Source: a virus
DNA length: 64,000 nt
IMG/VR virus record: IMGVR_UViG_3300025128_000017
Location: 32,158 to 96,157 of that record
Reading direction: 5' to 3' (one strand)
Shown here one piece after another: positions 16,264 through 39,528 of the stretch (position 1 is its first letter; each line of letters starts with the position of its first letter). The notes below the pieces were generated by a model. It was not told where the DNA came from. It was given only the letters and a program-made list of their open reading frames with translations, and did no database searches. Both the position numbers and the translations under genes were made by a program.

Positions 16264-17204
16264 TCTTCCTCGCCCCCTAGTATCGCTGACAGTATGTAGT
16301 CAGCCGCTTTCTGTGCATCACCAAACGCTTTGTTCAATGCTTTGTCTTTATCTTTGCAAGCCTTGAGCCATGACTGTAAGTATGCTACGTTGTTAGCATT
16401 CTCTTCGGCCACCAAGTCAGGCTTGAACTCACCACCAAGAGTGAGTGTAACAATCAATGAACCAAGTTCAGCAATCAATTCCTCGTAGGCATACTCCGCC
16501 GAACCAAAGTGAGACTTGAGATTTCTATTTAGTCTTGTTGCATATCCAGTGGAGTGAACTGCCTCATGTATAGCAGTCATCACTTCACCCATGCTGTCAG
16601 TGAATGACTCATGTGGTGGTAGTACAATCTTATCGTGTACTGGTGTATAGTATGCTCTGTCGCCACCTCTTGAGTAATCAAGATTGACTTGCGATGCTAC
16701 GTATTCATCCATGTGTTCCATCATTTCTGACACAGGTACAATCTCTTCAGCATTCTCAACAACGGGTGCTACGTAGTCCTCACATTGTTCAACACAAAAC
16801 ACTTCATAGTATCTAAGTGTACGACCGTAGTGTTCTTCTTCCTCACCCTCATCATTCTTCTTAGTGTACTTAGTAGTATTGAACCACTTGATGCTTACAC
16901 CTGTACCATTCTTCAAGCCTTTGATTGACATTTTCTTAGCCATCAACTGCTTACGTGTAGCAAACCGTAGGTCAGTCCAACCATTAGTCATCGCTTCAAT
17001 CCAAAGCATGACTAGATTACCACCACGATATGATTTCTTAGACACTAGATTGGATGGCATACTACTCTTACCACCCTTCCAATGCTTACGCCAAGCCAAC
17101 TTCTCACCCTGTATCGCACCCTCTAGTTTCTGAAACCACTCATCGTTAGCAGTTTCTCTCTTCATCTTTGCATATTGTTTCTTCTGTTGTATACTCATCG
17201 TCAT
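16260..17204 (-). CDS. ardC: ArdC-like antirestriction protein (ssDNA-binding + zincin-like domain)
   Basis: P.N..S.K.YRG.N, AYY.P..D.I.LP, HEAVHSTG...RLNR, YAYEELIAELGS. Confidence 0.9.
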   Translation of the reverse strand: MTMSIQQKKQYAKMKRETANDEWFQKLEGAIQGEKLAWRKHWKGGKSSMPSNLVSKKSYRGGNLVMLWIEAMTNGWTDLRFATRKQLMAKKMSIKGLKNGTGVSIKWFNTTKYTKKNDEGEEEEHYGRTLRYYEVFCVEQCEDYVAPVVENAEEIVPVSEMMEHMDEYVASQVNLDYSRGGDRAYYTPVHDKIVLPPHESFTDSMGEVMTAIHEAVHSTGYATRLNRNLKSHFGSAEYAYEELIAELGSLIVTLTLGGEFKPDLVAEENANNVAYLQSWLKACKDKDKALNKAFGDAQKAADYILSAILGGEEE

Positions 17205-21635: not shown

Positions 21636-22340
21636 ATGAGCAGCGGCTTTGGTAAAAACAGTGATTTTCATTATTTGTCGCCAAATTTTGTGTTAAAGGC
21701 GAAAAGGTCGGGCGAATATTCTACGCCTGACCATGTTTTGTTGGATAATGTTAGGAATAATAGGCCAAATTCAGCAGATGATAGGCTAACGCCGGAAGAA
21801 ATGCAAAGAAAAAAAATAGAAATGGCTATGATGAACAAACCTAACCCGGATATGATGAAAAGTGATGACAAAAAGAAACCTGCGATGGCTCTTGTGATTT
21901 CTGTTGGACCTAAAATGCCAAAAAAACCTACAGACACGGCAACTCCTGACAAAATGAAAAAATATGGTACTATGAAAAAAGCATGGAGTGTTTTAAAAAA
22001 TAACATGGAAGTTGGAATGTGCAAAAATTGTGAAGGTACTGGTAAAATTCCGTTTAGAGCATCGCAAGCAAGAGGAAGGTTTGACCCTAATCCAGAAGCA
22101 GGACAAATAGGAGACCCATGCCCATCATGCGGGGGTGATGGGAGTGCCCCTATAAGTGACCCTGCTTTTACATCAATGCAACAAAAATTAACTGGTGAGC
22201 CTATGAATTTAGCATTTAGATTACTTAAAGAGTCTATTGACCCTAAAAAATTAGCAGAAATGAGAGCAGCAAGAGATGCTGCTAGAAGACAAATGGGTCA
22301 ATCAAATCCCGAAAGAGGCGGAGATGTTGACCCAATTTGA
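21636..22340 (+). CDS. Tagged virion-region protein with DnaJ-type Zn finger
   Basis: AWSVLK and EPMNLAFRLLK tags flank CKNCEGTG...CPSCGGDG. Confidence 0.7.
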   Translation: MSSGFGKNSDFHYLSPNFVLKAKRSGEYSTPDHVLLDNVRNNRPNSADDRLTPEEMQRKKIEMAMMNKPNPDMMKSDDKKKPAMALVISVGPKMPKKPTDTATPDKMKKYGTMKKAWSVLKNNMEVGMCKNCEGTGKIPFRASQARGRFDPNPEAGQIGDPCPSCGGDGSAPISDPAFTSMQQKLTGEPMNLAFRLLKESIDPKKLAEMRAARDAARRQMGQSNPERGGDVDPI

Positions 22341-23322
22341 CATCGCTTGGTCTTTTTTGAAGGCCGATGATGATGCAAAGTTAATGGCTGAAATACAAAG
22401 GCAACTTGCTGAATTTAGAAATAATGAAAATATGAGCAACGATGTATCTGAGCAACCCGCTACAGAACCTCAATCTTTTAATCCAAGTGAAAGAAAACTT
22501 GCTTTTCCTAGAAAACGTAGTAAAAAATATTCTATACCAATAAGACAAGACGAATCGAATGAAGAATTTAAATTAGGACCTTCGTTTAGAGAAAGAACTG
22601 ATGAATCGCAAGGTTCACAAATGCAAATAGAAGAACAAAAACGACAAGCCGTTGAAAGATTAAAAAATAAAATAAAAAGAAAAAATGAAGTTGCAGTAAC
22701 GAGAGGCGGTAGTGGTGTTTACGCTGACGATGAACATGCAGAAACAGTTAGGCAAGATTGGTTAGACTCAATGTCTGATGATGAAAGACAAAGATTTGCA
22801 GAACATGAAGAAGATTTCAACACTTTGGCTATATTGGCAGAAATGAAAAGACAAGGTGCAGTAGACCAAGACGCATTGGGTATGTATGGAGAAAATCTTG
22901 CTAGTGGTGCTATGTTGTTGGCTACTCCTGAGTCACAGCGTGATGAAAATTGGAATAATGCATTGAAAAACCACAAATTGGCTCATGCTGTGCATAATGA
23001 TGAGTTAGACAATTCTTTTGATGGTTATGATAAAGTTTCAGACAATGTTGGTGTGGTTGATAACAACAAAAAAATGGCTGAAAAATTATATGGTTACAAA
23101 GAAGATGTTGACGAAGAAGAAGAAGACGATGGTGATGAATTACTTCCAGATGATTATGTTATGCCCGGTTCGCCAGTTGCTTTACAAAATGAAAAGAAAG
23201 AACAAGAAAATAATACTTTACAAAACGAAATTGCACGTCAAATTGCAGAATACAATAAAAACATGGTTGGTGTTACAAATAAACCACAATATACTGAAGA
23301 AGACTATGAAGCAGGTGATTAA
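22324..23322 (+). CDS. Acidic tagged protein
   Basis: Start MLTQFDIAWSFLKA with GGCGGAG RBS. Confidence 0.75.
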   Translation: MLTQFDIAWSFLKADDDAKLMAEIQRQLAEFRNNENMSNDVSEQPATEPQSFNPSERKLAFPRKRSKKYSIPIRQDESNEEFKLGPSFRERTDESQGSQMQIEEQKRQAVERLKNKIKRKNEVAVTRGGSGVYADDEHAETVRQDWLDSMSDDERQRFAEHEEDFNTLAILAEMKRQGAVDQDALGMYGENLASGAMLLATPESQRDENWNNALKNHKLAHAVHNDELDNSFDGYDKVSDNVGVVDNNKKMAEKLYGYKEDVDEEEEDDGDELLPDDYVMPGSPVALQNEKKEQENNTLQNEIARQIAEYNKNMVGVTNKPQYTEEDYEAGD

Positions 23323-23325
23323 CGC

Positions 23326-23340
23326 CAACAGTATATAAAG
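23326..23340 (+). promoter_or_regulatory. Promoter variant CAACAGTATATAAAG
   Basis: 15/15 identical to the copy at 12547. Confidence 0.5.
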
Positions 23341-23380
23341 CACAAGTTTTATTTACACACTACGTGTAGCATATATACAG

Positions 23381-23584
23381 ATGAGTGCGAGCCAAAGAGC
23401 GTTTGATGATGCTTGGTTGATGTTAAAGTCTCAGCCTGTAGGTTTGTCATTTACTAAATCTCAAAGAGACAAAATTGTTCATACAATTGTTAAGATGATG
23501 CAAAGTGATAACCCTGAAATGATAGAAAAAGCCACAGAATTGTACAGTCTCTACAATAATTCTTTTGATATTACTCTGAATTGA
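23381..23584 (+). CDS. Small tagged protein
   Basis: AFDDAWLMLKS. Confidence 0.7.
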   Translation: MSASQRAFDDAWLMLKSQPVGLSFTKSQRDKIVHTIVKMMQSDNPEMIEKATELYSLYNNSFDITLN

Positions 23585-23903
23585 AACCAGTTGTTGTGCC
23601 AGCGTGTTCTCTAGCGTCCGTAGCGGCTTCTTGTATTTTATTACCTGTGTCGCCTACTTTAGCACCAACTTTTTTCCCTGCTTTTCTGCCAGCCATACCA
23701 CCGACTAGTGAACCAACTCTTGCACCAATTGCTGTTCCAATTCCCGGAACTACACTTCCAATCGCAGCACCAAGTGCAGCACCACCAGCAGCACCTGCCG
23801 CAGTTCCACCAACAGCACCACCACCAGCACCTACTTTTCCTTCAGTGGTTTTAGCATCGCCGTATTTTAAAACAGACCACGCTTCTTCAAATGGGTCGAC
23901 CAT
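23571..23903 (-). CDS. Tagged glycine-zipper protein (opposite strand)
   Basis: PFEEAWSVLKY followed by GxxxG repeats (GAALGAAIGSVVPGIGTAIGARVGSLVGG). Confidence 0.75.
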   Translation of the reverse strand: MVDPFEEAWSVLKYGDAKTTEGKVGAGGGAVGGTAAGAAGGAALGAAIGSVVPGIGTAIGARVGSLVGGMAGRKAGKKVGAKVGDTGNKIQEAATDAREHAGTTTGFNSE

Positions 23904-23930
23904 AATAAGCGGAGGAAGGGGAAGGTAAAA

Positions 23931-24701
23931 ATGCTGTCGCCTTTCGTAAGACCTATCATGTACGTAGGTGTTATACGGAAAGCACCTGTAGATTTCTCAA
24001 CATATCAGCAAGTACAAGACAATGGAAGAACAATTCATACTGCTGATGCTTATGAAGATGGAACTGAAGCAAACGAATACACCTCTCCTAATTATCAATT
24101 AAGAGCAGAAACAGAAGGTTTAGGTGGTAGAAAACCGTTTGCACAAGTTGTTGCAGGAAAAGTAGGTAGAACACCAATAGGTACAGATACAGAAGACCAA
24201 AGTTTTGGAGAACCTACAAACATTAGAGGTAAGGCTACCTTTAGTAGAGTACCTGCAAGAGAAGATTTCAAATTAGATGATGAAGAAGCGGGAAATTTAG
24301 CAGCAGACAATGTTTATGTTGATGAAGCAGATAGAAGACGAGGTATTGGTTCTGACATGTACGATTTAATGGCACATATAGGTGAACGAAAAAATATGAA
24401 TTTAGTTCCATCTGAAAATCAAACCGCTGATGGAAAAAAATTTTGGAGTAAAAGTGGTCAAGAAGGTCAATGGAGGATTAATAGAAGTGAACCTATGAAT
24501 ATAACTTTACAACTACTAAAGGGAAAAAGTTACATTCAAGATAGACCAAAACGACTCGCACAAGCCAAAGTTCAACGTCTTAGCCGAAAAGTTAAGAACG
24601 CACGCACTCAACACAAGTACAAACGTAATTTGGCTCGTGGAGCAATTAGACCAAAAATGAGGACACAAACCGGATTAATTAGAGTAACAAGGAGTAGATG
24701 A
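23931..24701 (+). CDS. GNAT acetyltransferase-domain protein with internal tag and basic tail
   Basis: VYVDEADRRRGIGSDMY (motif A), QTADGKKFW; EPMNITLQLLKG; probable start MYVG at 23958. Confidence 0.7.
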   Translation: MLSPFVRPIMYVGVIRKAPVDFSTYQQVQDNGRTIHTADAYEDGTEANEYTSPNYQLRAETEGLGGRKPFAQVVAGKVGRTPIGTDTEDQSFGEPTNIRGKATFSRVPAREDFKLDDEEAGNLAADNVYVDEADRRRGIGSDMYDLMAHIGERKNMNLVPSENQTADGKKFWSKSGQEGQWRINRSEPMNITLQLLKGKSYIQDRPKRLAQAKVQRLSRKVKNARTQHKYKRNLARGAIRPKMRTQTGLIRVTRSR

Positions 24702-24702
24702 T

Positions 24703-24996
24703 ATGAAACCAATAGACGCAGCATTTTCTTTTTTAAAAGCAGCAGGACCAATGAGACAATTAATGGATAATCCAGCCGACCCACAGAGTGAGTTAGTTGC
24801 TGGTGATGATGAAAAATTACAACAAGCGTATGAAGAAGCACATAAAGAAATAGATGAGCATCATAAAAAGAAGCAGACTGCACAAAAAAGAAGAGATGAA
24901 ATGAATCATCGCAATTCCAAGAAAGATGTTGACAAATTCTATGAAGATAATCACCCTGATTTCTTTAGCAGTTTAACTAAACCTGAATTAGATTAA
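24703..24996 (+). CDS. Small tagged coiled-coil protein
   Basis: PIDAAFSFLKA. Confidence 0.7.
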   Translation: MKPIDAAFSFLKAAGPMRQLMDNPADPQSELVAGDDEKLQQAYEEAHKEIDEHHKKKQTAQKRRDEMNHRNSKKDVDKFYEDNHPDFFSSLTKPELD

Positions 24997-26181
24997 GTGA
25001 TTATGATGAACCCGTTTGACGTTGCTTTTGAATTTATTAAAGCACCTCCACCTGATTTATATTACAATGCTGAAGAAAGTGTACCATACGATAATGACGC
25101 AATGCATAATATAATGGGTACTGCTAAATTACAAGAAGTATTACAAGAAGACCCCGCTGTAATGGTAGATGCACATTTTGGTGCTTTCGATGAAGGTGTT
25201 AGAGGGGCAGATTTAAACCCAAAAGGGATGAATTATGGTATGCCTTATCATAAACTTATTACTAACCAACGAATGAAACCAGAAACAATTAATTTCATAA
25301 GAACTTTAGGAGCATCTGAAACATCTCCAGTTGGGATGAGTGTTGATGCAAAACAAATTTCAAACATAGTACATGACGGAGAAGATTGGATACACAGTAA
25401 AGAAAAAAATAAAGGTCATTGGCAATATTCAATCAAACCTCTTGTGGGTACATCAGAAACTGGAAGAAAACAATTTCCCAATTTTGATTTAGGTGATATG
25501 AGATTTTTAAATGATATGGAAAATATGTCCGATGAAGAAAAATTTCATAGAGATTTTTTCCTATCTGAAAAAGGGCAAGACATGTTTTATAGTGATGATA
25601 ATCATCATAAAGCGAAAAGAGATTCTATAGAATACTCCGTAAATGCACCAGATGAAAATTCTACTGCTGAAGAATTGATGACTTATTATTCTAATACAGG
25701 GGCAAAAGGTGCTGAATGGTATCCACATTTATCTGAAGCAGGAAGAAAATACATAAATAAAAATTTAGGAAAACCGGGATTTGCAAAGCCTATAAAAATC
25801 CTTATAGATAATGCAATGGTGGAAAGAAAGAGAGTTTTAGAGGCAAGGGAAGAGGCAAAGAAGCGAGGTCCTTTAGACGAACAAGGTAGACAAATTTCCG
25901 TTAAAAGCGAACCAATGGATATAGCCTTCCAATTACTGAAAGAACGTAAGTCACCTGAAGCGTTTGCCAACAAAAAGAAATACGATAGTGAATATCAAAA
26001 AACACCAAAGCGTGTAAAATATCGTGAACAACTAAATGCAGAACGTAGAAGAAGAGGAATATATGGCAAAGGTGGAAAAGATGTCAGCCATACACAAGGT
26101 GGAAAATTAACATTAGAAAGTGTTCATGCTAATAGAGCAAGACACTTTAAGAATAAAGGAACGCTTAGGAGAGTGAAATGA
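24997..26181 (+). CDS. Doubly tagged protein with C-terminal HNH-like domain
   Basis: PFDVAFEFIKA, EPMDIAFQLLKE; GKDVSH...NRARH. Confidence 0.65.
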   Translation: MIMMNPFDVAFEFIKAPPPDLYYNAEESVPYDNDAMHNIMGTAKLQEVLQEDPAVMVDAHFGAFDEGVRGADLNPKGMNYGMPYHKLITNQRMKPETINFIRTLGASETSPVGMSVDAKQISNIVHDGEDWIHSKEKNKGHWQYSIKPLVGTSETGRKQFPNFDLGDMRFLNDMENMSDEEKFHRDFFLSEKGQDMFYSDDNHHKAKRDSIEYSVNAPDENSTAEELMTYYSNTGAKGAEWYPHLSEAGRKYINKNLGKPGFAKPIKILIDNAMVERKRVLEAREEAKKRGPLDEQGRQISVKSEPMDIAFQLLKERKSPEAFANKKKYDSEYQKTPKRVKYREQLNAERRRRGIYGKGGKDVSHTQGGKLTLESVHANRARHFKNKGTLRRVK

Positions 26182-26248
26182 AACAAACATTACCTTTGCG
26201 GAGAATAAAAACAAGTAGTAGGTTTAATTGGTGGAAGTGTGACTTAAT

Positions 26249-26431
26249 ATGAGTTGTGAATGTGGTCATTGTGTAGGTATGGATGGAGCATGGGATATGC
26301 TTGAAAAAAAATTATGTCCTGCTGGTAAAGCGGCTGCAAAAAGAAAGTTCAAAGTTTATCCATCTGCATATGCTAATGGTTGGGCTGTACAATATTGTCG
26401 TGGTAAGTTTAAGGGGAAGAAAAAGAAATGA
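26249..26431 (+). CDS. Small basic tagged protein (PSAYA motif)
   Basis: AWDMLEKK then KVYPSAYANGWAVQYC. Confidence 0.7.
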   Translation: MSCECGHCVGMDGAWDMLEKKLCPAGKAAAKRKFKVYPSAYANGWAVQYCRGKFKGKKKK

Positions 26432-26640
26432 ATCATATTGCTAATGTGAAAGCATGGAATCTTCTCAAAGGGAAAGAGGATGCACCAAATTATCGGAAAG
26501 CCACAGGACCAAAAAAATGTGGTAATTGTAAAGCATGGGATTCTTCAAAAACAAATGACCCAATGACAGGGTATTGTGAAATGTATGATTTTACTTGTAG
26601 AGCAGACCATACTTGTGATGCATGGGTGAGTAAAAAATGA
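26428..26640 (+). CDS. Tagged 4-Cys HiPIP-like protein
   Basis: AWNLLKG; Y...CGNC...GYC...CDAW spacing. Confidence 0.55.
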   Translation: MNHIANVKAWNLLKGKEDAPNYRKATGPKKCGNCKAWDSSKTNDPMTGYCEMYDFTCRADHTCDAWVSKK

Positions 26641-26945
26641 CACGATGTACTTGTTATGATACTCTCGTAGTTAAAAACCTGAATCGTTGGTTTAAAGAAA
26701 AATGGGTAGATGTTTCAAGAAAAGACAAGGATGGCAAGCATCCACCGTGTGGGAGAAGTAAAGCAAAACTTTCAGGTAAAGGCTATCCAAAGTGTAGACC
26801 TTCTGTAAAAGTTTCAAGCGATACACCAAAAACTTCTGGTTCAATGAGTAGTGGACAAAAACAAGCAGCAACTAAAAGAAAAAGAGCCAAAAAACAAGGT
26901 GTTGGCGGAAAACCTACTATAGTAAAGATGGTTGGGGTGATATAA
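26637..26945 (+). CDS. Basic protein (L.RWFKE.WVD...CGR...YPKCRP family)
   Basis: Motif recalled from marine dsDNA viruses. Confidence 0.65.
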   Translation: MTRCTCYDTLVVKNLNRWFKEKWVDVSRKDKDGKHPPCGRSKAKLSGKGYPKCRPSVKVSSDTPKTSGSMSSGQKQAATKRKRAKKQGVGGKPTIVKMVGVI

Positions 26946-27298
26946 TGGAGCACGAGCCTTGTAATTGTTGCACACCTTTCCAACAAGCAACAGTCGCTTT
27001 GATGGATAATGTTTTTGAAAAGGCTAAAAAGAAATCTAAACCATTTCACGGTTACAATCCAAACAGACATAGCAGAAGTGGTGGTCTAAATGCAAAAGGT
27101 CGTGCAAAGTTCAAAAGAGAGACAGGTGCAAATCTTAAAAGACCTGTTACAAAGAAACCAAGTTCTCTAAAACCCGGTAGTAAAGCGGCAAAAAGAAGAA
27201 AGTCTTTCTGTGCAAGAATGGGTGGAAGTAAAGGTCCAACGAGCAAGGGTGGGAAACTTACCCCGAAAGGTGCAGCGTTGAAAAGATGGAATTGTTGA
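26945..27298 (+). CDS. Basic protein (GGL..KGR...RRKSFCARM...W.C, DUF6321-like)
   Basis: Motif recognition; GGTGA RBS. Confidence 0.65.
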   Translation: MEHEPCNCCTPFQQATVALMDNVFEKAKKKSKPFHGYNPNRHSRSGGLNAKGRAKFKRETGANLKRPVTKKPSSLKPGSKAAKRRKSFCARMGGSKGPTSKGGKLTPKGAALKRWNC

Positions 27299-27447
27299 TT
27301 ATTCCAATTATTCATTATTCTATCTATAATAAAGAATAATAATATATATTGTGTATAGAAAGAATAATGAAACATTAGAAACATTAGTTGTTAATTTTCA
27401 AAACCCTTATTATGTCAACCTCTGTGGCCTTTAACAAGGTCATTACT

Positions 27448-28080
27448 ATGGTAGGAGCGAACCACGATAATCACGAGATGAGATTGACAGGACTTATTCT
27501 TGCACAATCTGCACTAATTGGTGCGGCAGTAGGAATATTTGACGCAGGTATTTGGTTGCCAGCAGGAACAACAGAAAACCATTGGGTAAACGGAATGACA
27601 TACTCAATGGGTGCTTTAGCAGTGCAAATTCTAGCATACTATTTGTTTAAAATGTTCTTTGAACAGCAAATGCAAGAAAAAGTTAGAATTTCTGAAATGC
27701 AAAGGCAAAGAGATAGTAGATATAGAGAAATGCAATACAGCCATGACCAGCGTAGACAGGATATGGAATTGAGAATGCAAGAAATGCAATTAGAAAAAGA
27801 AATTATGTGGATGCAACAAAATCCCGGTAAAGCATTTCCACAGTTTATGGATAAAACATCAAAATATAATTCTAGTAATGTTAGTGGTTTAGGGGTTGAC
27901 TATAGTAGTTCTGCAAAACCACCGCAACATATGGCAGACGTAAGTAATTCTGCTTTAACTTTAGGTATGTCAGGTAACAATCTAAAAAGTGATGTTACAC
28001 CACCAAGAAACATGGATGAAGATGGATATAGATTAAAAGCCGATGGAACTATAGACAAAAGATTCAAGAAAAAAAGGTGA
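27448..28080 (+). CDS. Two-TM membrane protein with Q/M/R-rich coiled coil
   Basis: Two hydrophobic segments, then a coiled coil and disordered tail. Confidence 0.7.
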   Translation: MVGANHDNHEMRLTGLILAQSALIGAAVGIFDAGIWLPAGTTENHWVNGMTYSMGALAVQILAYYLFKMFFEQQMQEKVRISEMQRQRDSRYREMQYSHDQRRQDMELRMQEMQLEKEIMWMQQNPGKAFPQFMDKTSKYNSSNVSGLGVDYSSSAKPPQHMADVSNSALTLGMSGNNLKSDVTPPRNMDEDGYRLKADGTIDKRFKKKR

Positions 28081-28083
28081 TGT

Positions 28084-28350
28084 GTGAAAACGATGGGGCG
28101 TATCTTCAAGACACCAAAAGACGATTCAGTTGAAGAAACACTGAGAGCCATGCACTTGGCTAACACTGTTGATAATACCTATGAGTGGGGTGTTGGATGG
28201 TTACGAACTGTTATCTTTTCAGCAATAACTGCTCTGATTATTAGTTACGTTGAATCAGTTTCTGATTTTAGATTGTGGGGTTGGACTGTTGAATGGTCTT
28301 ATGAACAGGCTAGAGATTTAGCAGACTGGCTTTATGCTAAAATTGATTGA
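28084..28350 (+). CDS. Small membrane protein
   Basis: VGWLRTVIFSAITALIISYV TM segment. Confidence 0.7.
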   Translation: MKTMGRIFKTPKDDSVEETLRAMHLANTVDNTYEWGVGWLRTVIFSAITALIISYVESVSDFRLWGWTVEWSYEQARDLADWLYAKID

Positions 28351-28362
28351 GGTGTATAAATT

Positions 28363-29076
28363 ATGATGACGGGTGGTAGCGTATTAGTAGGTGCTGCCTT
28401 ATACGGTCAAGCGTTATATAATTCTTGGAAACCTAGAAGAGTAGGAATATATGGTACTAGTATGGTTGGTAAAACTACCTTAGATAGATATATGACAACA
28501 CCGGGTGAAATGGAAGAAATTCCTGTAGATGAAAGAACTGACCATTTTAAATTAATAACTAGATATATATTACCTAAACCTACAAGAAAACGAATTAGTT
28601 ATTCCGGTGAAAAAAGAGTTGTTTATTCTTCTGATGTAGGAGGACATGATAGATTTTGGAATCTTTGGATAGATGATATGGTTGCAAGACAAGTTGAATG
28701 CGTTGTATACATGTTTGATGATAGGGCTTTTGCAGGTGGTCCTGATGGTATAGACCAATTAGCCGGATTCAAGTTTTTAGTTGATGCTTTGATAAATCGT
28801 AATTATAGGTATAGAACTCTTAAAAGTAGATTAAAGGGTAAAAGATACGCTCCTAGATTACTTATGTTAGTAGCAAATAAGGCTGATAGATTCTTTGATA
28901 AAAGTGCAGCAGATTTATGGTCACAAGGAAGAATAGGTGAACATAAAATATTTGACCCGTTTAGAGATGAGTTGATTAGATTGCAAAAAGCAAACCTACC
29001 AACAAAACGTGCTTTCATGGCAACTAGGGTAGGTTGGAACGTAGAGCCAACAATGGTAGATTTATTGACTACATGA
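28363..29076 (+). CDS. Ras/Arf-like small GTPase
   Basis: G1 GTSMVGKT, G3 DVGG(H)..F...W, G4 NKAD, G5-like MAT; hydrophobic N-terminus. Confidence 0.85.
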   Translation: MMTGGSVLVGAALYGQALYNSWKPRRVGIYGTSMVGKTTLDRYMTTPGEMEEIPVDERTDHFKLITRYILPKPTRKRISYSGEKRVVYSSDVGGHDRFWNLWIDDMVARQVECVVYMFDDRAFAGGPDGIDQLAGFKFLVDALINRNYRYRTLKSRLKGKRYAPRLLMLVANKADRFFDKSAADLWSQGRIGEHKIFDPFRDELIRLQKANLPTKRAFMATRVGWNVEPTMVDLLTT

Positions 29077-29105
29077 GTGACCTTTTTTATGTGTAACGGT
29101 GTCGG

Positions 29106-29294
29106 ATGTATATGGCGAGAGGTGCGACGAGTACTGTTTTAGTTCCAATTGGTGGAGCAAGTAAGTCACTTAGGACTACTGTGCCTATGTGGATTATTAA
29201 ACAATTTAACCTCGATGCTGGCAGTAAACTTAATTGGAGAATAGACATCGAAGGCGACGAGATGCTCATCAAAGTGTCTCCTGTGGAGAAGTGA
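29106..29294 (+). CDS. AbrB/SpoVT-like DNA-binding protein
   Basis: SLRTTVP..I..QFNL.AG.KL.W. Confidence 0.75.
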   Translation: MYMARGATSTVLVPIGGASKSLRTTVPMWIIKQFNLDAGSKLNWRIDIEGDEMLIKVSPVEK

Positions 29295-29298
29295 AAAA

Positions 29299-30330
29299 AT
29301 GGTTTTAGATATACCGGATAACATGTATCGAACACTTACCAACACACCATTACAAACACATTCTTTGTCATCGTTGAATGAGGCTGCTATGATGGCGATG
29401 GCTCAACAAGGCAATCCTCAATTTAATCAAGGAGCAATCATGGAACAAGCCACTGCACAACAACACATGCAGCAATACGGTACACAATTAAATCTTCAAG
29501 TTCCTAAAGTTAATTTTTATCCTTCTAATAATCCTGACCCACGAAAAGCAAGAAGAAAGGATATTAAACAAGCATATAAACTATTATCTCCGACAAAACG
29601 TTCTATATTCGACCCTAGAAGATGGGTAGGTAGTAAATATAGATATAATAAAGATACAGGAGTTTGTTGTATTGATGGTTGTAATGTTAAAGAATTAATA
29701 CAACATGACAATCTGTATGCTAGAATTAGTGATGAAGAAACAGGTGTAAGTCTGTGGGAACTTTACTGGACAAACCCTATCACTTCACAACCTGAAGCAT
29801 TTATTGCAAGAACCGGGGTTACTAGTGGTCGTAGATTACAAGCAACTTATTGTCCTGAACATCTACATCTTTATCATTTACTTTGTAAATGGGAAACAGA
29901 ACAAGATAAAGAAGATGAATTAAAACCATCTTATTTTAAAGATAAAGTAAACAAGGGTGTAAGTTTAGTTACTGTACCTGTTACTGCCATGCAAAGTAAA
30001 GAAACACAAATGCCTGAGTTAGTACAAAAATATGAAAACTTCTTTAAAGAAATAGAAAAAGACTCTAATAGAACTAAAGGGATTAATGTTTGGCACGTAC
30101 CAAATCCAGAAACTGGATTAAATGATATTACTATGATACAGTTTGACATGAGAATGTTCCAAAAAGAAGAAGTGCAACAACAAATTGCTGCTCAACAAGC
30201 ATTTCAAACAGTTTTAAACCAACAGGCTCAAGTTCTTAACCCCGCCACGGTAGTGCAACCACCACCTGTAACACCAGCACCGGCGGTAATACCAGTAACA
30301 GAAATACAACAAAATGAGGTGACACAATAA
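29299..30330 (+). CDS. Q-rich protein with Cys/His motifs
   Basis: CCIDGC...YCPEH; Q/P-rich ends. Confidence 0.7.
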   Translation: MVLDIPDNMYRTLTNTPLQTHSLSSLNEAAMMAMAQQGNPQFNQGAIMEQATAQQHMQQYGTQLNLQVPKVNFYPSNNPDPRKARRKDIKQAYKLLSPTKRSIFDPRRWVGSKYRYNKDTGVCCIDGCNVKELIQHDNLYARISDEETGVSLWELYWTNPITSQPEAFIARTGVTSGRRLQATYCPEHLHLYHLLCKWETEQDKEDELKPSYFKDKVNKGVSLVTVPVTAMQSKETQMPELVQKYENFFKEIEKDSNRTKGINVWHVPNPETGLNDITMIQFDMRMFQKEEVQQQIAAQQAFQTVLNQQAQVLNPATVVQPPPVTPAPAVIPVTEIQQNEVTQ

Positions 30331-30953
30331 TGGGATTATTTTCTACAACACCAGCAAGCAACAATTCATCATTTAGTTTAGGAGCACCTGTAATGAATAC
30401 TGCACCTCCTACACAACAAGGTTATCAGAATTCTTACGGTGCATCACCATTGACTGCTGGCATATTAGGTGGTGCTGGTATAACTCCGCAACAGTATGGG
30501 ATGCCCGTTGCCCCACCTTCTGAAACAGATGTTTTAGCAGCCATGTTAACAACTTTACAACCGATAGATAGATTTATTGTCAGTCAAAATATGCCTGTAT
30601 TCATAGAAATGCTTTCTAACATAACCACATTTTCTCTTCTGAATGTGTTAAAAAATGCTACTTTTAAACTAGATGAAGAGGGTAACATGTCATTAGATGT
30701 TATGTCTTTACCTAGTGATTTACAGACATTAAGTGCAGAAAATATTGTTGCACAACTAAATAGTTTACAAAACACATCCATGCAATCCATCCAATCTGCT
30801 GAACAACAAAGGATGCAAATAAAAGCAATGGCTGACCAATCGTTATTACAAGGTGCTCTTGGTGCAGCAATGCAACCCGGCGTTATGGAAAATGTTGGAC
30901 AGGCTGCTGGTGGATTTTTCAATAGAGCATTATTTGGAGGTACAATGAAATGA
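30330..30953 (+). CDS. Hypothetical protein (low-complexity ends, helical core)
   Basis: TAATG coupling, GAGGTGA RBS. Confidence 0.7.
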   Translation: MGLFSTTPASNNSSFSLGAPVMNTAPPTQQGYQNSYGASPLTAGILGGAGITPQQYGMPVAPPSETDVLAAMLTTLQPIDRFIVSQNMPVFIEMLSNITTFSLLNVLKNATFKLDEEGNMSLDVMSLPSDLQTLSAENIVAQLNSLQNTSMQSIQSAEQQRMQIKAMADQSLLQGALGAAMQPGVMENVGQAAGGFFNRALFGGTMK

Positions 30954-31195
30954 TAAATGGAGGAAGTATAACACCTAAGCCAGTTGCCGATATGACGTTA
31001 CAATTTTTTAATCCTAGACATAGCACAATTGTCGATATGATTATGATACAATTAATTGCAGCCATCATTACTAGTTTGATTATTTTAATATACAAAGGAA
31101 ATGAAATTTCACAAAATGATGCTACACTTTTCTTAGTTGGAATCTTTGCATCTTTCATTTTATTAACTACAGTGTATTCACGTATAACGAGATGA
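30950..31195 (+). CDS. Small two-TM membrane protein (holin-like topology)
   Basis: Two TM helices, basic C-terminus. Confidence 0.6.
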   Translation: MINGGSITPKPVADMTLQFFNPRHSTIVDMIMIQLIAAIITSLIILIYKGNEISQNDATLFLVGIFASFILLTTVYSRITR

Positions 31196-31249
31196 TGATA
31201 GTCTCTTTTTCTAACAAACTTAATTTGCTACGCATGTAGTCGACACATC

Positions 31250-31936
31250 GTGACCGAGCGTGAGCAAGTGACAAAAAGGTCCTGTGCCTTTTGTCAACAT
31301 CCTGATAGGAATGACTTGGAAGACATGATAAGGAACGGAGAAACTTCCATAAAAACTCTCGACAAAGACATGGGTTGGAGAGCCAATACAGCAGACCGTC
31401 ATTTTAGAAATCATATGGGAGAATATCACATGGCTGCTAATCCTAGTTGTGTAATTTGCACACATCCTGAAAGAGCAGAATTTGAAAATAGGTTTTTTAC
31501 AGATGGTTCTCAATCTGATATAATAGCCAAAGAATTAGATGTTGCTGAAAATACTGTTTACCATCATATGAAACATCACTTTCAACCTTTAGTACAAAGG
31601 TCTGCTGCTACTGAAGTTGTAGTAAAAGTAGGACATGAAGTGAATGTGTTGAGAAATAATGTAGAAAAACTCAATAATAGATTAAATGATTTCTTAGATG
31701 AATCTACAGGTTATGAAGATGGTTTTGTTCGAGATGCAGTTACATTACATAAAGAAGTTAGAGAAAGCATAAAAGATTTAGTCAAGTTCAATGAAGCATG
31801 GGGTACAACCGCAGAAGGTACTCAAGTCAATCAAACAATCAATATATTGAAAGTTGAATTGGCTAAAGAAAGTCCCGATACTTGGAAACGTATCAAGGCT
31901 GAATTATTACAAAACGGAGAGATTGAAATTGAATAA
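31250..31936 (+). CDS. Tandem Zn/HTH protein, candidate terminase small subunit
   Basis: Two CxxCxHP.R...H...H units plus coiled coil and QVNQTINI tail. Confidence 0.5.
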   Translation: MTEREQVTKRSCAFCQHPDRNDLEDMIRNGETSIKTLDKDMGWRANTADRHFRNHMGEYHMAANPSCVICTHPERAEFENRFFTDGSQSDIIAKELDVAENTVYHHMKHHFQPLVQRSAATEVVVKVGHEVNVLRNNVEKLNNRLNDFLDESTGYEDGFVRDAVTLHKEVRESIKDLVKFNEAWGTTAEGTQVNQTINILKVELAKESPDTWKRIKAELLQNGEIEIE

Positions 31937-32345
31937 TCAATTAGTTTCTGTTAGTGATTTGATGCAAATTACTCATCCGGGTCATAGATTTTTAATTTCC
32001 GATTATGATATTAAAGAAAACGATTTACCTATGTTTTTAGATTATTGCGTTGTTGTTTATGGGCGTTTTAAACACTACGCTGAAAATAATAATAATCTAC
32101 AAATTTCAGATAAAAGTTTGTATGACATTATGCAAGACTTGAAAAAAATGAGAGAAACGGATGAACCTTCTGAAATACATATACTCAGACAATCATTAAA
32201 AGGCGGTCTAATGGAATTTAGAAAAATTTGTAAATCGATGAGTGCTTGTTTTTCTTCTCCTTTGGTTGTTAAATCGTTCTATGATGCTTTAGGTGATAGA
32301 TTAACAGAACAAATTGTAATTTATGCGGGGATTGAATATGAGTAA
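31929..32345 (+). CDS. Hypothetical protein
   Basis: Helical ORF; start (TTG) uncertain. Confidence 0.6.
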   Translation: MNNQLVSVSDLMQITHPGHRFLISDYDIKENDLPMFLDYCVVVYGRFKHYAENNNNLQISDKSLYDIMQDLKKMRETDEPSEIHILRQSLKGGLMEFRKICKSMSACFSSPLVVKSFYDALGDRLTEQIVIYAGIEYE

Positions 32346-33603
32346 AATACTTGTAAAATCTAGTAGCGGTATCATGGGTGGTAGTGATACTAGAATTTAC
32401 AACCCTAGAAGCGAATCATCACATATGTATCGCAATAATCATGAAGAAGAAGATAAGTACGGTAGAGAATCTTCGGAAGCAAGAGATGAAAGATATGATA
32501 GAAAATTACGTATTAAAGAGAAAAAAGATAAAGAAAAAAATAAAATAAAACATATAAAAATGTCTGCTGAAGATTTAATCGGTTTAAAAGATGAAAAAGA
32601 AGAAGCAGAAGAAGGTGACAAGTTTGACACTGACCGTGAATTAAGTGCTCAAACTGGACCTGCTGGTAATATGGGTTTCTTGACAAGCCTAGCAGCCCAA
32701 GCAAAAGGACCGGGTGCTGCGGGAGGCAATGCTTTTGCCATGGGTGAACCGATGGAAATAGCATATCAATTATTAAAATCGAAAGAACTTAGTGAAAAAA
32801 CTAAAAAGAAGAAAAGAGAAAGAAGGAGAACCAAAGAAAAAAGACAAAAGTGGAGACCTTCTACTGGACAATTCAAAACACCACCGGGCGGCTCTTTAGG
32901 ACCAAAAGGTGCTACTGGTAGAAGGGCAAAAGGTCAAATGCGTTCTGTAAAAAGAGGTAAGTTGAGAGGTTTGATGCATGCCCCATTATCTGTTGAAATG
33001 GAACATCGTGGTGTTGCTACTAAACAACCTAAATCTAAAGATGTGCCTAAATATAAAGAATTTTTAGGTCAACAAGAAAGTCGTAAAAGAGCAGGAAATG
33101 TACGTTCTCCCACTTCGCAACAATCAAGAAGCGGTGCTCGTAGTTATTATGCTGGAAAAACAGGCGGTGGTAGATTGCAAGGTATGTCAGCACCAAAGCC
33201 TCGTTTGAAACCTCATCGTTTACCACCGATTACACCACCTAGTACTCTAAAAGTTCCTCATTTAAATCAACCACAAATGTCAGGTCCGGGTGCTACTGGT
33301 TATATGCCGATGCAAAAACCTATTTCACCAACACCTATGCCAATGGATGCAATGTCTCAACCGTCAATGATGGTGGCAAAAGGTGCTTTTGGTTTAACAA
33401 CAATAGAATTAGGCAAGATATTAAGAATTGCTGAAAGAACATTAAGGGCTAAAGAAAAGAAAAAGAAAAGTACAGGTAATGCAGAAACAATCGACGCTGA
33501 CCAAACGCCAACAGGTCAGACAACAAAACCTCAAGGTGGTACTGAAGACCATAGAATGGAAAATATAGGAGGGGTAAAAGGTCTTAGAGGTAATACACAA
33601 TGA
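32338..33603 (+). CDS. Low-complexity basic protein with internal tag
   Basis: ILVKSS, GEPMEIAYQLLKS, MVAKG. Confidence 0.7.
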   Translation: MSKILVKSSSGIMGGSDTRIYNPRSESSHMYRNNHEEEDKYGRESSEARDERYDRKLRIKEKKDKEKNKIKHIKMSAEDLIGLKDEKEEAEEGDKFDTDRELSAQTGPAGNMGFLTSLAAQAKGPGAAGGNAFAMGEPMEIAYQLLKSKELSEKTKKKKRERRRTKEKRQKWRPSTGQFKTPPGGSLGPKGATGRRAKGQMRSVKRGKLRGLMHAPLSVEMEHRGVATKQPKSKDVPKYKEFLGQQESRKRAGNVRSPTSQQSRSGARSYYAGKTGGGRLQGMSAPKPRLKPHRLPPITPPSTLKVPHLNQPQMSGPGATGYMPMQKPISPTPMPMDAMSQPSMMVAKGAFGLTTIELGKILRIAERTLRAKEKKKKSTGNAETIDADQTPTGQTTKPQGGTEDHRMENIGGVKGLRGNTQ

Positions 33604-36218: not shown

Positions 36219-36844
36219 GTTATGTCGGAATAAAAAAATCATACGTTGGTATAATTAAACAACAGAGCAATGCTACACCAGCCGTTGCTAGTAATATTTC
36301 ACCACCGCCTGAAAGTGGTGGTACACAAATTGGTGTAGGGAATGTTTTTACTACTGTAGATGGTAAAAAAAGAAATCTTTTTGAATTAGATGAAGAAGGA
36401 AAAAGAGTGTATAATCCTTTACAAGTAGGTATAGGTCTTGCTGGTAGAGCAGCAGGTGCAGGGTTAGGTGCTTGGAATGCGGCAAGAACTTTATCTGAAA
36501 GTCAAGGTGGTGACATGATTTCTGATTTAGGAAGGGCTGGTGTTGCTGGACAACAAACTATGAATCTTGGTACGGCTGCTACTAATGTAGCGATGGATAC
36601 GCCGGGTAAAATTGCAGGTGTGCCGAAAACAATCAGAAATTATGTAAATGCTGGTAAAAGCACAACTACTGGTTTTGAAGAACCTGAAGAACCTGAATTT
36701 CATATGGGTTATCCTGTTAATGACGATAAGGTTGCAGTACAAGATAGTTCTATGCAAGTATCAGGTCCAGCAAAAGCACAAAATCCGGTCAAAGTTGTTA
36801 CTCCTGAACGAGCAAAATTTACAGGTGAAGAAATAAATCAGTGA
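36215..36844 (+). CDS. Gly/Ala-rich putative virion protein
   Basis: Duplicated N-terminal SYVGIKK/SYVGIIK; glycine-zipper-like segment. Confidence 0.7.
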   Translation: MSYVGIKKSYVGIIKQQSNATPAVASNISPPPESGGTQIGVGNVFTTVDGKKRNLFELDEEGKRVYNPLQVGIGLAGRAAGAGLGAWNAARTLSESQGGDMISDLGRAGVAGQQTMNLGTAATNVAMDTPGKIAGVPKTIRNYVNAGKSTTTGFEEPEEPEFHMGYPVNDDKVAVQDSSMQVSGPAKAQNPVKVVTPERAKFTGEEINQ

Positions 36845-38334
36845 TTAATATGATTGAAGATAATGAAGACATGAAATCATTCATTATTGAAATGGATAGA
36901 AAAATGGCTAAAAAGTCATTTCATTACTTTTTTACAGAATGTTTAGAGTTTCTTTACAATCATCATCATAAATCATGGGAAACAGGTTTAACTGAACATT
37001 CTTATTATTGTGTAAAAGCATCAAGAGACCACGGTAAGTCTGTATTTTTTATGTCATATGCATTATGGTTAGCAGCATTTAACAAGAAAACTCACATCAT
37101 GATATTTTCTCACTCTCTTGAACAGACACTTGAACATATGAGATTTATTAGAAATCTAATAGATAATACTCCAGTACTACATCATTTGAAGCCAGCCGGA
37201 AAACAACCGTGGGCAAAGTCTTACTTCGAGTTTACAAATGGTAGTCGTTTGATGGCAAAATCGGTTGGTGGGGCTACTCGTGGTTTCCACCCTGATGTTG
37301 TTGTGTGTGACGATATTCTTTGGGGTACTAGTGGAACTGAACTTCAAAGAACTGCTGATTGGTTTTACGGTGTACTTCTTCCAGTTCTTCACCATAGTAG
37401 TAAATTAATGATGGTTGGTACACCATTTAGTTACAATGACTTATATGCGGAATTAGAACAAAAAGAAACATTTAGAGTTGAAACTTATCCTGCAATTGAT
37501 TCTGAAGGAGTTGCATTATGGCCTGAACGTTGGGATATGGCGGCTTTAGAACAAAGAAGGCTTTCAATGCCCGCTATACAATTTTCTCGTGAATATCTTT
37601 GTGAGCCAATTCATGATGTTGCTAGTATGTTTCCTATGGATATATTAGAGGGTGCTAGAGATACAAATTTAGTTTTATTAGATAGAGCAGAAACAAACTA
37701 CAACGAGGAAGGTGAACCGGATGGTGTTTTCGGTCAACACTTCATAGGTCATGACCCTGCTATATCTTCTGATAAAAATGCTGACTTTACTGCGATGACT
37801 GTAATGAGACAAAAACCGAATGAACCTTTCAAAGAAATAATCCATGTTGTACACGAAAGAGGGATGAGTACAATGGCTCAGAAAAGAATGATGGTCATGT
37901 TAAATAGTCGTTTTAGCCCTGATTTGATTGAACTTGAAGGTAACAATTTCCAAAGAATGCTAGAAGCGGAAATGAGAGAAATGGCAGCAGACATGCCTAT
38001 TCGAGTATTTATGACTACAAGAACTAAAAAAGAATCTCTGTTTATGAGCCTTCTTCTTGCTTTTGAACAAGGACATATCAAATTACCATATGGAGATGAA
38101 AGAAGTAGGACATATACACATAAATTGGAACAAGAATTAAATCGCTTTGGTATGCAGAAAAATGGTAAATTAGAAAGCGTGGGAGTACACGATGACTTAG
38201 CAATGAGCCTTGCTTTGGCTAATTGGGCCACAAAAGAATTTAAGGGAAGTGTTATGCTACTAGATGATGTCATGCCGGCGTTTGATTCGTGGTTTGACAG
38301 CGGGAAAAGAAATAACGATTGGGTGATACCTTGA
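36841..38334 (+). CDS. terL: Terminase large subunit
   Basis: SRDHGKS Walker A, RG...VVCDD Walker B, VGTP, GHDPA nuclease, HDDLAMSLALA. Confidence 0.95.
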   Translation: MINMIEDNEDMKSFIIEMDRKMAKKSFHYFFTECLEFLYNHHHKSWETGLTEHSYYCVKASRDHGKSVFFMSYALWLAAFNKKTHIMIFSHSLEQTLEHMRFIRNLIDNTPVLHHLKPAGKQPWAKSYFEFTNGSRLMAKSVGGATRGFHPDVVVCDDILWGTSGTELQRTADWFYGVLLPVLHHSSKLMMVGTPFSYNDLYAELEQKETFRVETYPAIDSEGVALWPERWDMAALEQRRLSMPAIQFSREYLCEPIHDVASMFPMDILEGARDTNLVLLDRAETNYNEEGEPDGVFGQHFIGHDPAISSDKNADFTAMTVMRQKPNEPFKEIIHVVHERGMSTMAQKRMMVMLNSRFSPDLIELEGNNFQRMLEAEMREMAADMPIRVFMTTRTKKESLFMSLLLAFEQGHIKLPYGDERSRTYTHKLEQELNRFGMQKNGKLESVGVHDDLAMSLALANWATKEFKGSVMLLDDVMPAFDSWFDSGKRNNDWVIP

Positions 38335-38358: not shown

Positions 38359-39528
38359 ATGAAAATAGAAGTAGGTGGTCTTAGTATGCAGATGTTTGCA
38401 GATAACGGCGAAGGGTGGTTTGAAACACACTTAGGTTGTACAGCATCTGATTTTGTTGGTAGATTAAAAAAAGCAAGAAGGCATAATAAACATTCAAAAG
38501 AAGAAATCGATGGTATGATAAACGATGTTAGAATGTTAAAAGCATTGGAAGTAAGAGGTACATTAGAATCTGTTTCATGGTGCGAAGGTTATGAAAATGT
38601 TATACATAAATTTGGATTGAGTGATAGAGATTTAAAATCACTTAGAAAATTTGGCGATACAAGAAAGGCTAGTTTAATTCGTGCATGTAATCAATGGCAA
38701 GAAGCAGATGAATTACTTTCTAAACTCGATGAACATGTAGAAGTTTGGGGTAAAGAAGAAGAAATGGCTTGGGTGCAAGCGATGAATATCAGAAAAGATG
38801 CTAAAAAATTATGGAAAACTACATTGCATCAAATGGATAAGTTAACTGAAAAAGAAACAGATGCTTTGATAAAAAGTGCGGAGTTACTCACAGAAAGAGG
38901 TTCAATGTCAGGTAGAGGACTTTTTGAAAATTTATCTGATGCTAAAATATTACACAAAAGTATGACACCAATGAAATTATCAAAACTAATCAGTGTTTAT
39001 GGTGAAGAAGTTGACATAATTGCAGGAGGTAAAAGAGGAACTTTTGTCAAAATGGATAAGTCAGGTTTAATATTGAAAGACCCGTATGCATATGCGGCAG
39101 GATTTTTAGATGCTGATGGTTATATTTCTATAACTAAAAGAGGAGAGCCAAGAGCAGGATTTGTTGCTACAGGTTCAAGAGGTAAAATTCATTGCGAGCA
39201 GTTACAAAAAACATTAGGTTGTGGTGTTTTACAACTAGACCAAAAAATATACAAAGATAGTCAAAGAAGTCAGCATCGTTTACAATTTTATTCTAAAAGT
39301 GACATTCGTAAATTATTAACTCAAATACTCCCACATTTAAAAATGAAAGATTTACAAGCCAAAGCGGTACTTGCTTTTATCGATGAAACTGATAGTGTGA
39401 GAAAAGAAGAGTTACAAAAATTAGTTAAATACAGCAATTGGAGTGATGATACTATTAAGGCAAGTGACCTTTTAACAGAATGGGGTGTCGCTTCTGACGA
39501 TATCGCCAAGTGGAAGGAGGGATTATAG
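38359..39528 (+). CDS. LAGLIDADG-domain protein with long N-terminal extension
   Basis: YAAGFLDADGYISIT...LPHL..K..QA. Confidence 0.8.
   Translation: MKIEVGGLSMQMFADNGEGWFETHLGCTASDFVGRLKKARRHNKHSKEEIDGMINDVRMLKALEVRGTLESVSWCEGYENVIHKFGLSDRDLKSLRKFGDTRKASLIRACNQWQEADELLSKLDEHVEVWGKEEEMAWVQAMNIRKDAKKLWKTTLHQMDKLTEKETDALIKSAELLTERGSMSGRGLFENLSDAKILHKSMTPMKLSKLISVYGEEVDIIAGGKRGTFVKMDKSGLILKDPYAYAAGFLDADGYISITKRGEPRAGFVATGSRGKIHCEQLQKTLGCGVLQLDQKIYKDSQRSQHRLQFYSKSDIRKLLTQILPHLKMKDLQAKAVLAFIDETDSVRKEELQKLVKYSNWSDDTIKASDLLTEWGVASDDIAKWKEGL

Follow-up and report, generated by a model that had tools for sequence, protein, structure and literature searches.

The x-E-P-M sites inside four open reading frames of a magrovirus: probable protein-level tags at module junctions

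Four open reading frames (ORFs A, E, G and K) in the late arm of a magrovirus-like genome carry, well inside their coding sequence, a peptide tag that opens with G-E-P-M or S-E-P-M and whose first codons resemble a Shine-Dalgarno (SD) site followed four bases later by an ATG (Table 1). The DNA comes from IMG/VR record IMGVR_UViG_3300025128_000017, which is 96,157 bases long, and by the window we mean the whole stretch that was analysed, namely bases 32158-96157 of that record (64,000 nucleotides). Working from the letters alone, the original prediction was that tagged cassettes arrive with their own ribosome-binding site (RBS) and fuse in frame into polyproteins, or that the C-terminal payloads behind the tags are also translated separately. 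The question raised by this locus is whether the x-E-P-M sites act on the ribosome or in the protein. We consider it probable that they are protein-level address tags of magroviruses, each located where, within a single translation product, an upstream module meets a basic C-terminal payload. GGTGA is no more than Gly(GGT)-Glu(GAR) in the DNA, and the ATG encodes the Met with which the hydrophobic positions of the helix begin. The tagged ORFs are read through from upstream starts, and relatives can do without the SD-like spelling as well as without the ATG. The coincidence of an RBS with an ATG thus appears to be a by-product of how Gly-Glu-x-Met is spelled, not a conserved signal.

Using a position matrix, we located 11 copies of the tag in the window, all of them on real ORFs that are unrelated to one another, at 21.6-33 kb and at 53.3 kb of the late arm, and hundreds more were present in relatives; this recurrence is far beyond chance. 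Six of the 11 copies lie at or near N-termini (22336, 23402, 24712, 25015 and 53323, as well as 23891 on the minus strand), four are internal, and one, at 21972, is found about 30 residues into the conserved part of ORF A. The four internal copies are the only ones of their class in the whole record, and each of them is in frame with its host ORF and preceded by 144-306 open codons. Their coordinates and codons, together with those of the three genuine GGTGA-4 nt-ATG starts with which they had been compared, were all confirmed. The pattern GGTGANNNNATG has 12 matches in the window against 2.4 expected, and five of these 12 are not ORF starts: two are tags, one is an antisense site, and two minus-strand sites, 5904-5915 and 16578-16589 (the latter in an ArdC-like gene), lie in frame inside ORFs. 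True GGTGA is present in just two of the four window tags, since AGTGA matches the SD over 4 nt only and AGCGA does not match it at all. Both Gly-type window tags (2/2) are spelled with GGT, which has p = 0.25 given that Gly-Glu is fixed by the peptide and that GGT accounts for about 50% of Gly codons.

Synonymous codons and SD content at the tags

About 20 magrovirus-like loci (loci are cited by number below) contain a long open ORF with two to five copies of G/S-E-P-M-D-I-A-F-Q-L-L-K, and an IMG/VR search with ORF G returned 40 loci that match only its last ~90 residues. Our main sample consisted of 63 non-redundant internal tags from the window and ~20 related IMG/VR loci, all of them preceded by 60 or more open codons. 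These tags open with AGCGA in 16 cases, GGCGA in 12, GGTGA in 11, GGAGA in six and AGTGA in five. GGT serves as the Gly codon in 11 of 31 internal tags, compared to a background of ~50% (binomial p = 0.15), and is hence not enriched, and GGC and AGC are over-used. Two further samples were picked without regard to the Gly/Ser codons. Among 31 exact P-M-D-I-A-F-Q-L-L-K sites, AGCGA was found nine times, GGCGA seven times and GGTGA five times, and among the [GS]-E junctions before the orthologous tail of ORF G (G2) in 35 loci, GGTGA was found in 3/24.

Orthologous tags use GGC, GGA, AGC, AGT or TCT in place of GGT. Tag 4 is spelled GGTGAACCG in the window and in L041, GGCGAGCCA in L042 and GGAGAACCA in L002-L004, its Gly codon being GGT, GGC (as in L042) or GGA, and the orthologue of tag 1 in L001 has GGC. 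Position 1 of the tag, the site of the putative start, is ATG in 56 of the 63 internal tags and encodes I, F or L in the other seven (by ATA, ATC, TTC, TTT or CTC), with the payload kept; at the position of tag 4, L007 and L008 read S-E-L-I and have lost the ATG. The tag Met is also present in tags whose gene starts three codons further upstream. The proposal that the cassettes carry their own RBS does not withstand this comparison, since homologues keep G/S-E-P-M while their codons destroy GGTGA, which is retained in 11/63, 5/31 and 3/24 of the sites in the three samples.

We scored SD matches with one function over positions -16 to -3 in three groups of ATGs. True starts of genes with an N-terminal tag (n = 24) have a match of at least 4 nt in 24/24 cases and of at least 5 nt in 58%. 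For ATGs of internal tags (n = 56) these values are 43% and 21%, respectively, and for random internal in-frame ATGs (n = 3360) they are 27% and 6%. The difference in SD content between N-terminal and internal tags is significant (Fisher p = 2e-7), the 5-nt matches at internal tags all stem from the Gly-Glu codons, and a 5-nt match was found at none of the 23 Ser-type tags.

The ORF that fuses a prohead protease to a scaffold-like domain served as a control. It contains AGGTGA, 5 nt and an in-frame ATG (M184) within a K/E-V-x-x-M sequence, which is located in a variable linker directly after the invariant I-L-K-E-D that closes the protease domain. The Val codon at this site is GTG in 27/27 orthologues, compared to a background of 17%, AGGTGA or GGAAGTGA stands five bases ahead of the ATG, and the ATG itself is kept in 26/28 orthologues. 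Judged by this codon usage, M184 is likely a selected nested in-frame start of the scaffold. Since GTG is kept in 27/27 orthologues here, a real internal start is detectable by the synonymous-site test; SD conservation at synonymous sites can hence be used as a test for nested starts in these genomes, where it picks out the probable nested scaffold gene, and the tags do not have the signature of a selected nested start. Nested in-frame genes of this kind are the lambda C/Nu3 and the herpesvirus UL26/UL26.5 pairs. The likeness to them seems to hold for the protease-scaffold gene, in which the SD is kept at synonymous sites before M184, whereas the tags differ from them in an SD that is not kept, an ATG that can be lost and stand-alone versions whose start lies elsewhere.

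These data bear on two ways in which the tag Met could function as a start codon. If internal starts were conserved, the Gly-Glu codons would constitute an SD site and the Met would start a separately translated payload. In two of the four window tags, GGTGA and ATG are indeed spaced exactly as in three real GGTGA-N4-ATG starts, position 1 shows a strong preference for Met, and the virus uses SD-led starts, seemingly including the nested one in the scaffold gene. However, GGTGA makes up only the small fractions given above and orthologues have GGC or AGC instead, no Ser-type tag has an SD match as long as 5 nt, and some orthologues are devoid of the ATG. Moreover, the reading frame ahead of the tag is open in every case, and stand-alone versions start at least three codons upstream (see below). 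We regard conserved internal starts as very improbable and as largely refuted by the synonymous-site data. Initiation might instead be incidental and confined to this virus, in which case the chance occurrence of GGTGA ahead of 22203 and 32752 would result in some unselected separate translation of the payloads. The geometry is identical to that of genuine starts in the same arm and nothing in the sequence blocks ribosome binding, but the spelling is not kept in the closest relatives (L001 with GGC at tag 1, L042 with GGC at tag 4), comparable in-frame GGTGA-N4-ATG sites are found inside ordinary enzymes (e.g. at 16578-16589) and the product would be devoid of the Pro that is kept by all tags. 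This makes incidental initiation unlikely in our view, and we favour tags that act at the protein level.

Split and fused versions of the tagged modules

The payloads behind the tags were found both fused and as separate genes. The basic tail of ORF E (E2) is fused via a full tag in the window, in L124 (on the same contig as L001) and in L132, behind unrelated modules, and it is a stand-alone gene of 68-85 aa in at least ten related contigs (L125-L131, L133, L134, L007 and L010), where the conserved domain is preceded either by a full N-terminal tag or, immediately, by a short leader with V-L-V-K at its end. The G2 tail, which corresponds to PHROG 6437, is fused in 34/35 magrovirus-like loci. 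In other marine phages, including Synechococcus phages, it is encoded by a tag-less stand-alone gene of 81 aa, and some entries of a large protein database have it behind N-terminal tags of the form M-K/N/R-P-hydrophobic. Stand-alone PHROG 6437 relatives are found in Synechococcus phages S-CBP2, S-CBS2 and S-CRES1, and a payload of an archaeal virus is thus shared with cyanophages.

Stand-alone genes start three to seven codons before tag position 1 (M-N/K/R-P-hydrophobic), and the SD lies upstream of that start. In L150, for example, the tag of the first module reads M-K-P-M-D-I-A-F-Q-L-L-K, GAGGTG precedes the first ATG by seven bases, and the start is located three codons before the tag Met. 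M-N/K-P was found at positions -3 to -1 in 0/63 internal tags, which argues that internal tags are not the read-through of a stand-alone gene together with its RBS. No gene beginning at the tag Met was detected among the 35 G2 loci or among the 31 exact-tag sites, and the loci at hand contain no stand-alone ORF that ends exactly where a fused module ends before G/S-E-P-M.

The format of the stand-alone genes also bears on the possibility that G-E-P-M is a fossil, i.e. the translated relic of an RBS, spacer and ATG inherited from stand-alone cassettes after loss of the preceding stop codon. GGT-GAx-xxx-ATG does translate to G-[D/E]-x-M, and payloads occur both split and fused. Yet the stand-alone format consists of an SD, 5-9 nt and ATG-AAx-CCx-hydrophobic, so that fusion would give the internal M-N/K-P that is seen in none of the 63 tags. 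In addition, Pro at -1 is already present in N-terminal tags, and the commonest spellings, AGCGA and GGCGA, differ from each other by a single transition and do not derive from GGTGA. We give a fossil RBS hardly any credence and continue to regard the junction sequence as a protein motif.

In relatives, fusion involves more modules. ORFs with three to five tags and a length of 562-976 aa (L013, L014, L004, L019 and L007) string together acidic modules of 90-370 aa, with the basic G2 tail as the last element, and the order of the modules changes between viruses, as seen when L013 is compared with L019, which indicates shuffling. ORF K is never split, with K1-tag-K2 kept in ~15 loci. K1, E1 and A1 are conserved as protein and the upstream frame is open at every internal tag. 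The G1 module of ORF G has no relative among any of the loci fetched. Long multi-tag ORFs should hence be annotated as single fusion proteins with junction tags and not be split at internal ATGs.

Several module ends in L014:3994-6363 and L004:3385-6312 share approximately N-E-E-T-G-F-T-R before S-E-P-M, which suggests that in some viruses the duplicated unit reaches ~9 residues upstream of the tag. A DUF5872 protein is encoded by a stand-alone gene in the window (26637-26945) and is fused to the PHROG 6437 tail in L183, L200, L203 and L205, where the junction reads P-T-I-V-K and then G-V-A-V-L-K-A, a minimal, shortened tag. In ORF A, two CxxCxGxG motifs lie between its two tags (21990-22190), and this region gave weak Pfam and anti-TRAP matches.

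Collectively, the part of the original prediction that concerned in-frame fusion of tagged cassettes into polyproteins holds, as E2 and G2 exist split and fused and ORFs with three to five tags occur, but the RBS that the cassettes were thought to bring along does not. Separate translation of the payloads from the tag Met was not borne out either, given that GGTGA is not conserved and that stand-alone genes start three to seven codons earlier. Two observations had been named as evidence against the prediction, and one of them, synonymous loss of GGTGA in homologues, was made; the other, a lack of split versions, was not, since comparison of orthologous loci revealed that split versions do exist, albeit, in the loci compared, not split at the tag Met.

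Table 1. Coordinates of tags, tagged ORFs, SD-led starts and head genes in the window
Feature	Position	Strand	Description
ORF A	21636-22340	+	short leader, first tag (21972-21998, M-K-K-A-W-S-V-L-K), DnaJ-type CxxCxGxG zinc-finger module, internal tag 1, tail
Internal tag 1 (ORF A)	22194-22229	+	GGTGA-gcct-ATG; G-E-P-M-N-L-A-F-R-L-L-K; followed by 37-residue C-terminal tail
ORF E	23931-24701	+	module E1 (weak GNAT-like match), internal tag 2, basic tail E2 (24522-24701)
Internal tag 2 (ORF E)	24486-24521	+	AGTGA-acct-ATG; S-E-P-M-N-I-T-L-Q-L-L-K; followed by basic E2 tail
ORF F, N-terminal tag	24703-24738	+	M-K-P-I-D-A-A-F-S-F-L-K; AGGAG 8 nt upstream; example of the true-start format
ORF G	24997-26181	+	N-terminal tag, module G1, internal tag 3, phrog_6437 tail G2 (25942-26181); likely start ATG 25006
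ORF G, N-terminal tag	25006-25041		M-N-P-F-D-V-A-F-E-F-I-K
Internal tag 3 (ORF G)	25906-25941	+	AGCGA-acca-ATG; S-E-P-M-D-I-A-F-Q-L-L-K; followed by basic phrog_6437 tail
ORF K	32323-33603	+	conserved K1 (140 aa), internal tag 4, K2 (basic, looks mostly disordered)
Internal tag 4 (ORF K)	32743-32778	+	GGTGA-accg-ATG; G-E-P-M-E-I-A-Y-Q-L-L-K; K1/K2 junction
Other N-terminal tag	22324-22362
Other N-terminal tag	23381-23428
Other N-terminal tag	23865-23903	-
Other N-terminal tag	53311-53349
Genuine GGTGA-N4-ATG start	26936-26947	+	ORF 26945-27298
Genuine GGTGA-N4-ATG start	41649-41660		same geometry, at ORF start
Genuine GGTGA-N4-ATG start	58394-58405		same geometry, at ORF start
Large terminase	36841-38334
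Portal	39510-41246
Protease-scaffold ORF	49054-50409		S78 HK97-type prohead protease fused to scaffold-like domain
Protease N-terminus	49087-49107	+	E-P-I-S-L-L-K; variable flanks
Protease/scaffold junction	49558-49572	+	I-L-K-E-D, invariant
M184 site	49592-49605	+	AGGTGA, 5 nt, in-frame ATG
Major capsid protein	50415-51593
Major capsid protein, residues 30-35	50502-50519	+	S-E-L-L-K-A; K-A-D common to HVTV-1 capsid protein

The tag as a peptide and as a possible codon lineage

The consensus of the tag is P-hydrophobic-[D/N/E]-x-A-[F/W/Y]-x-L-L-K. When read from the sequence, the conserved positions 1, 4, 5 and 8 come to lie on the same side of a helix, and the tag is predicted to be an amphipathic helix of ~10 residues. 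An AlphaFold2 (AF2) model of ORF G that was computed from the single sequence, with low confidence (mean predicted local distance difference test score, pLDDT, of 42), has a helix on residues 306-315, which correspond to tag 3. Conservation begins at position -3 (G/S), with a weakly hydrophobic preference at -6, and ends at the Lys. In the window and loci L001-L211, this Lys at position 9 is present in 105/109 relaxed matches and Arg in none, although the K:R ratio in these genomes is ~1:1. Pro at -1 is common to N-terminal and internal tags, and E-P therefore belongs to the peptide. This agrees with a caveat attached to the original prediction, namely that EP could be part of a protein motif. 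Two strings had been cited in support of that caveat. In one of them, DEPISLLKA in the protease, x-L-L-K is conserved and L17 and K18 are invariant. The other, G-E-P-I-Q-K-G at 33648, was tried as a tag and rejected, because orthologues do not conserve it. The tagged ORF 53311-54042 contains low-complexity P-E-P-M / Q-P-E-P sequence, and its E-P-M strings are repeats and not tags.

Internal tags favour Met and Phe at positions 1 and 5, whereas N-terminal tags favour Phe/Ile and Trp. In loci L002-L019, internal tags share rare C-ending codons (AGC, GGC, GAC, GCC, TTC and CTC). Tags of one contig have a synonymous codon identity of 0.64 and tags of different contigs one of 0.49, compared to 0.38 expected; for pairs within the window it amounts to 0.50. 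Moreover, identical 36-nt tags with unrelated flanks occur inside one ORF (e.g. L013:4813-4848 and L013:6007-6042). The shared codons point to one lineage of internal tags that may have spread by copying or gene conversion during module shuffling, and such a common lineage can explain the prevalence of Met without initiation. The same data could be taken to mean that the tag is mainly a DNA-level recombination linker, providing shared nucleotide homology for in-frame module swaps; the raised codon identity, the shared rare codons, the identical tags beside unrelated flanks and the shuffling of modules between L013 and L019 would all be in line with this. However, the four window tags retain the peptide but vary freely at synonymous sites, a linker role does not apply to N-terminal tags, and 36 nt is short for homologous recombination. 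A linker role would also be compatible with a function in the protein and secondary to it, and we think it rather improbable that it is what the tag is chiefly for.

Head proteins, a proposed mechanism and known systems

The late arm, in which the tags are located, encodes a large terminase, a portal, a 2143-aa protein, the protease-scaffold fusion, whose protease part matches Pfam Peptidase_S78 (HK97 type), and the major capsid protein, while a SNF2 helicase gene is found in the early arm. The capsid protein is 32-34% identical to the capsid proteins of haloviruses HVTV-1 and HCTV, a sequence likeness that matches group A magroviruses, which infect Marine Group II archaea (PMC5434244). Magroviruses are abundant among the archaeal viruses of the ocean. 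A megablast comparison of 24 kb with cultured phages gave no match. The magrovirus paper does not mention tags or polyproteins (PMC5434244), and a library search for magrovirus combined with polyprotein, targeting sequence or propeptide listed nothing of relevance. ORF 38359-39528, located between the large terminase and portal genes, gave a weak LAGLIDADG-like match and may encode a homing endonuclease.

The x-L-L-K end of the tag is conserved in head proteins as well, namely at the protease N-terminus, at the protease/scaffold junction and in the N-arm of the capsid protein (residues 32-34). A tag scan of HVTV-1 (50-100 kb) found none, and the tag is hence not a general feature of related haloviruses. 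Profile searches against solved structures gave one weak match for the capsid protein (6j3q) and none for the protease, and no information on processing sites; the AF2 model of the capsid protein, based on a shallow alignment of 51 sequences, had a mean pLDDT of 45 and was unusable.

Some observations weigh against the view that the x-E-P-M sites are address tags at junctions within one translated protein. Among 72 database homologues of the G2 tail, eight have the tag Met as their first residue; seven of these are on contigs shorter than 1 kb and one is on an 8.6-kb contig. In L009, the junction ahead of the orthologous tail of ORF A (A2) is devoid of a tag, which is hence not obligatory. Met occupies position 1 in 56/63 internal but only 6/33 N-terminal tags, and the founder-lineage explanation of this excess would draw on codon sharing alone. 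Lastly, L-L-K is short, and its occurrence in the capsid protein and the protease could be a coincidence.

In phage T4, unrelated proteins are brought into the scaffold core by an N-terminal peptide of ~10 residues, the capsid targeting sequence (CTS). The prohead protease gp21 later cleaves this peptide off and processes the capsid protein and its own N-terminus as well (PMC9958956). We tentatively propose, as a possibility to which we would give somewhat less than an even chance, that magroviruses produce part of their head cargo as polyproteins in which unrelated acidic modules and a basic DNA-binding tail are linked by a 12-residue helix ending in Leu-Leu-Lys. This helix would dock every piece within the procapsid and be cut by a Lys-specific, HK97-type prohead protease, and the junction, whose DNA is kept similar, would act as the splice point at which cargo cassettes are shuffled between viruses. 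By analogy with the CTS, the tag would dock each module in the assembling head and would probably also be the cut site of the S78 prohead protease. Cleavage would most likely occur after the invariant Lys; alternatively, it might occur just before G/S, leaving a three-residue lead (x-x-P) as in N-terminal tags. In either case, cutting could free basic, probably DNA-associated payloads from acidic carrier modules. We favour docking with Lys-directed cleavage because x-L-L-K recurs at the three sites in head proteins named above; further hints at processing are the strict preference for Lys over Arg (105:0) and the leaders of stand-alone payloads that end in V-L-V-K.

A docking helix might also do its work without proteolysis, in which case multi-tag proteins would stay intact and their tags would bind a common partner such as the capsid interior, scaffold, portal or chaperonin. 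All support for a protein-level motif fits this equally well, and conservation of the K1-tag-K2 fusion in ~15 loci implies that a tag can be a stable internal feature. On the other hand, the exclusion of Arg in favour of Lys at the end of the tag hints at a specificity pocket, and elsewhere the payloads function as small proteins in their own right. In addition, x-L-L-K occurs at two sites of the protease-scaffold protein, its N-terminus and the boundary between protease and scaffold, at which T4 and HK97-type systems normally process themselves (PMC9958956). Docking alone is possible but, in our judgement, on the unlikely side, and we prefer docking combined with cleavage. If the combination of polyproteins and address tags is true, it would be a strategy that is not described for any tailed double-stranded DNA (dsDNA) virus. 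Should the tag prove to signal both docking and cleavage, cargo could be directed to an archaeal virus capsid by a portable loading tag, and polyprotein logic would be exemplified in a tailed dsDNA virus. New here are the tests of codon usage and SD content, the recognition that N-terminal and internal tags have different formats, the survey of split and fused modules and the nested-start control.

The closest known counterpart is the T4 CTS, which likewise is a peptide of ~10 residues on otherwise unrelated, dispensable and often basic proteins of the head (PMC9958956), with a fixed short end motif that recurs in the capsid protein and at the protease N-terminus. The two differ in that the T4 peptide ends in L/I-x-E and the magrovirus tag in L-L-K, with unrelated sequences; in that the protease belongs to the gp21 family in T4 and is a scaffold-fused S78, HK97-type enzyme here; and in that the tag of this archaeal virus is also internal, with up to four or five copies per ORF, which is not so in T4. 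For the magrovirus tag, docking and cleavage are putative. In jumbo phages of the phiKZ/SPN3US type, one prohead protease cuts many packaged or ejected proteins at a short consensus, and some head proteins are cut internally into several mature pieces (PMC5694885, PMC10052503). That consensus comprises three residues and comes without a conserved helix, and shuffled cassettes joined by a conserved 12-residue junction are not found there. Like the polyproteins of RNA viruses, which a viral protease cuts at conserved junctions, the magrovirus ORFs are long and composed of unrelated modules with a recurring junction peptide between them. Unlike those, they belong to a tailed dsDNA virus in which only accessory proteins are built in this way, their modules also exist as separate genes, and their cleavage is putative.

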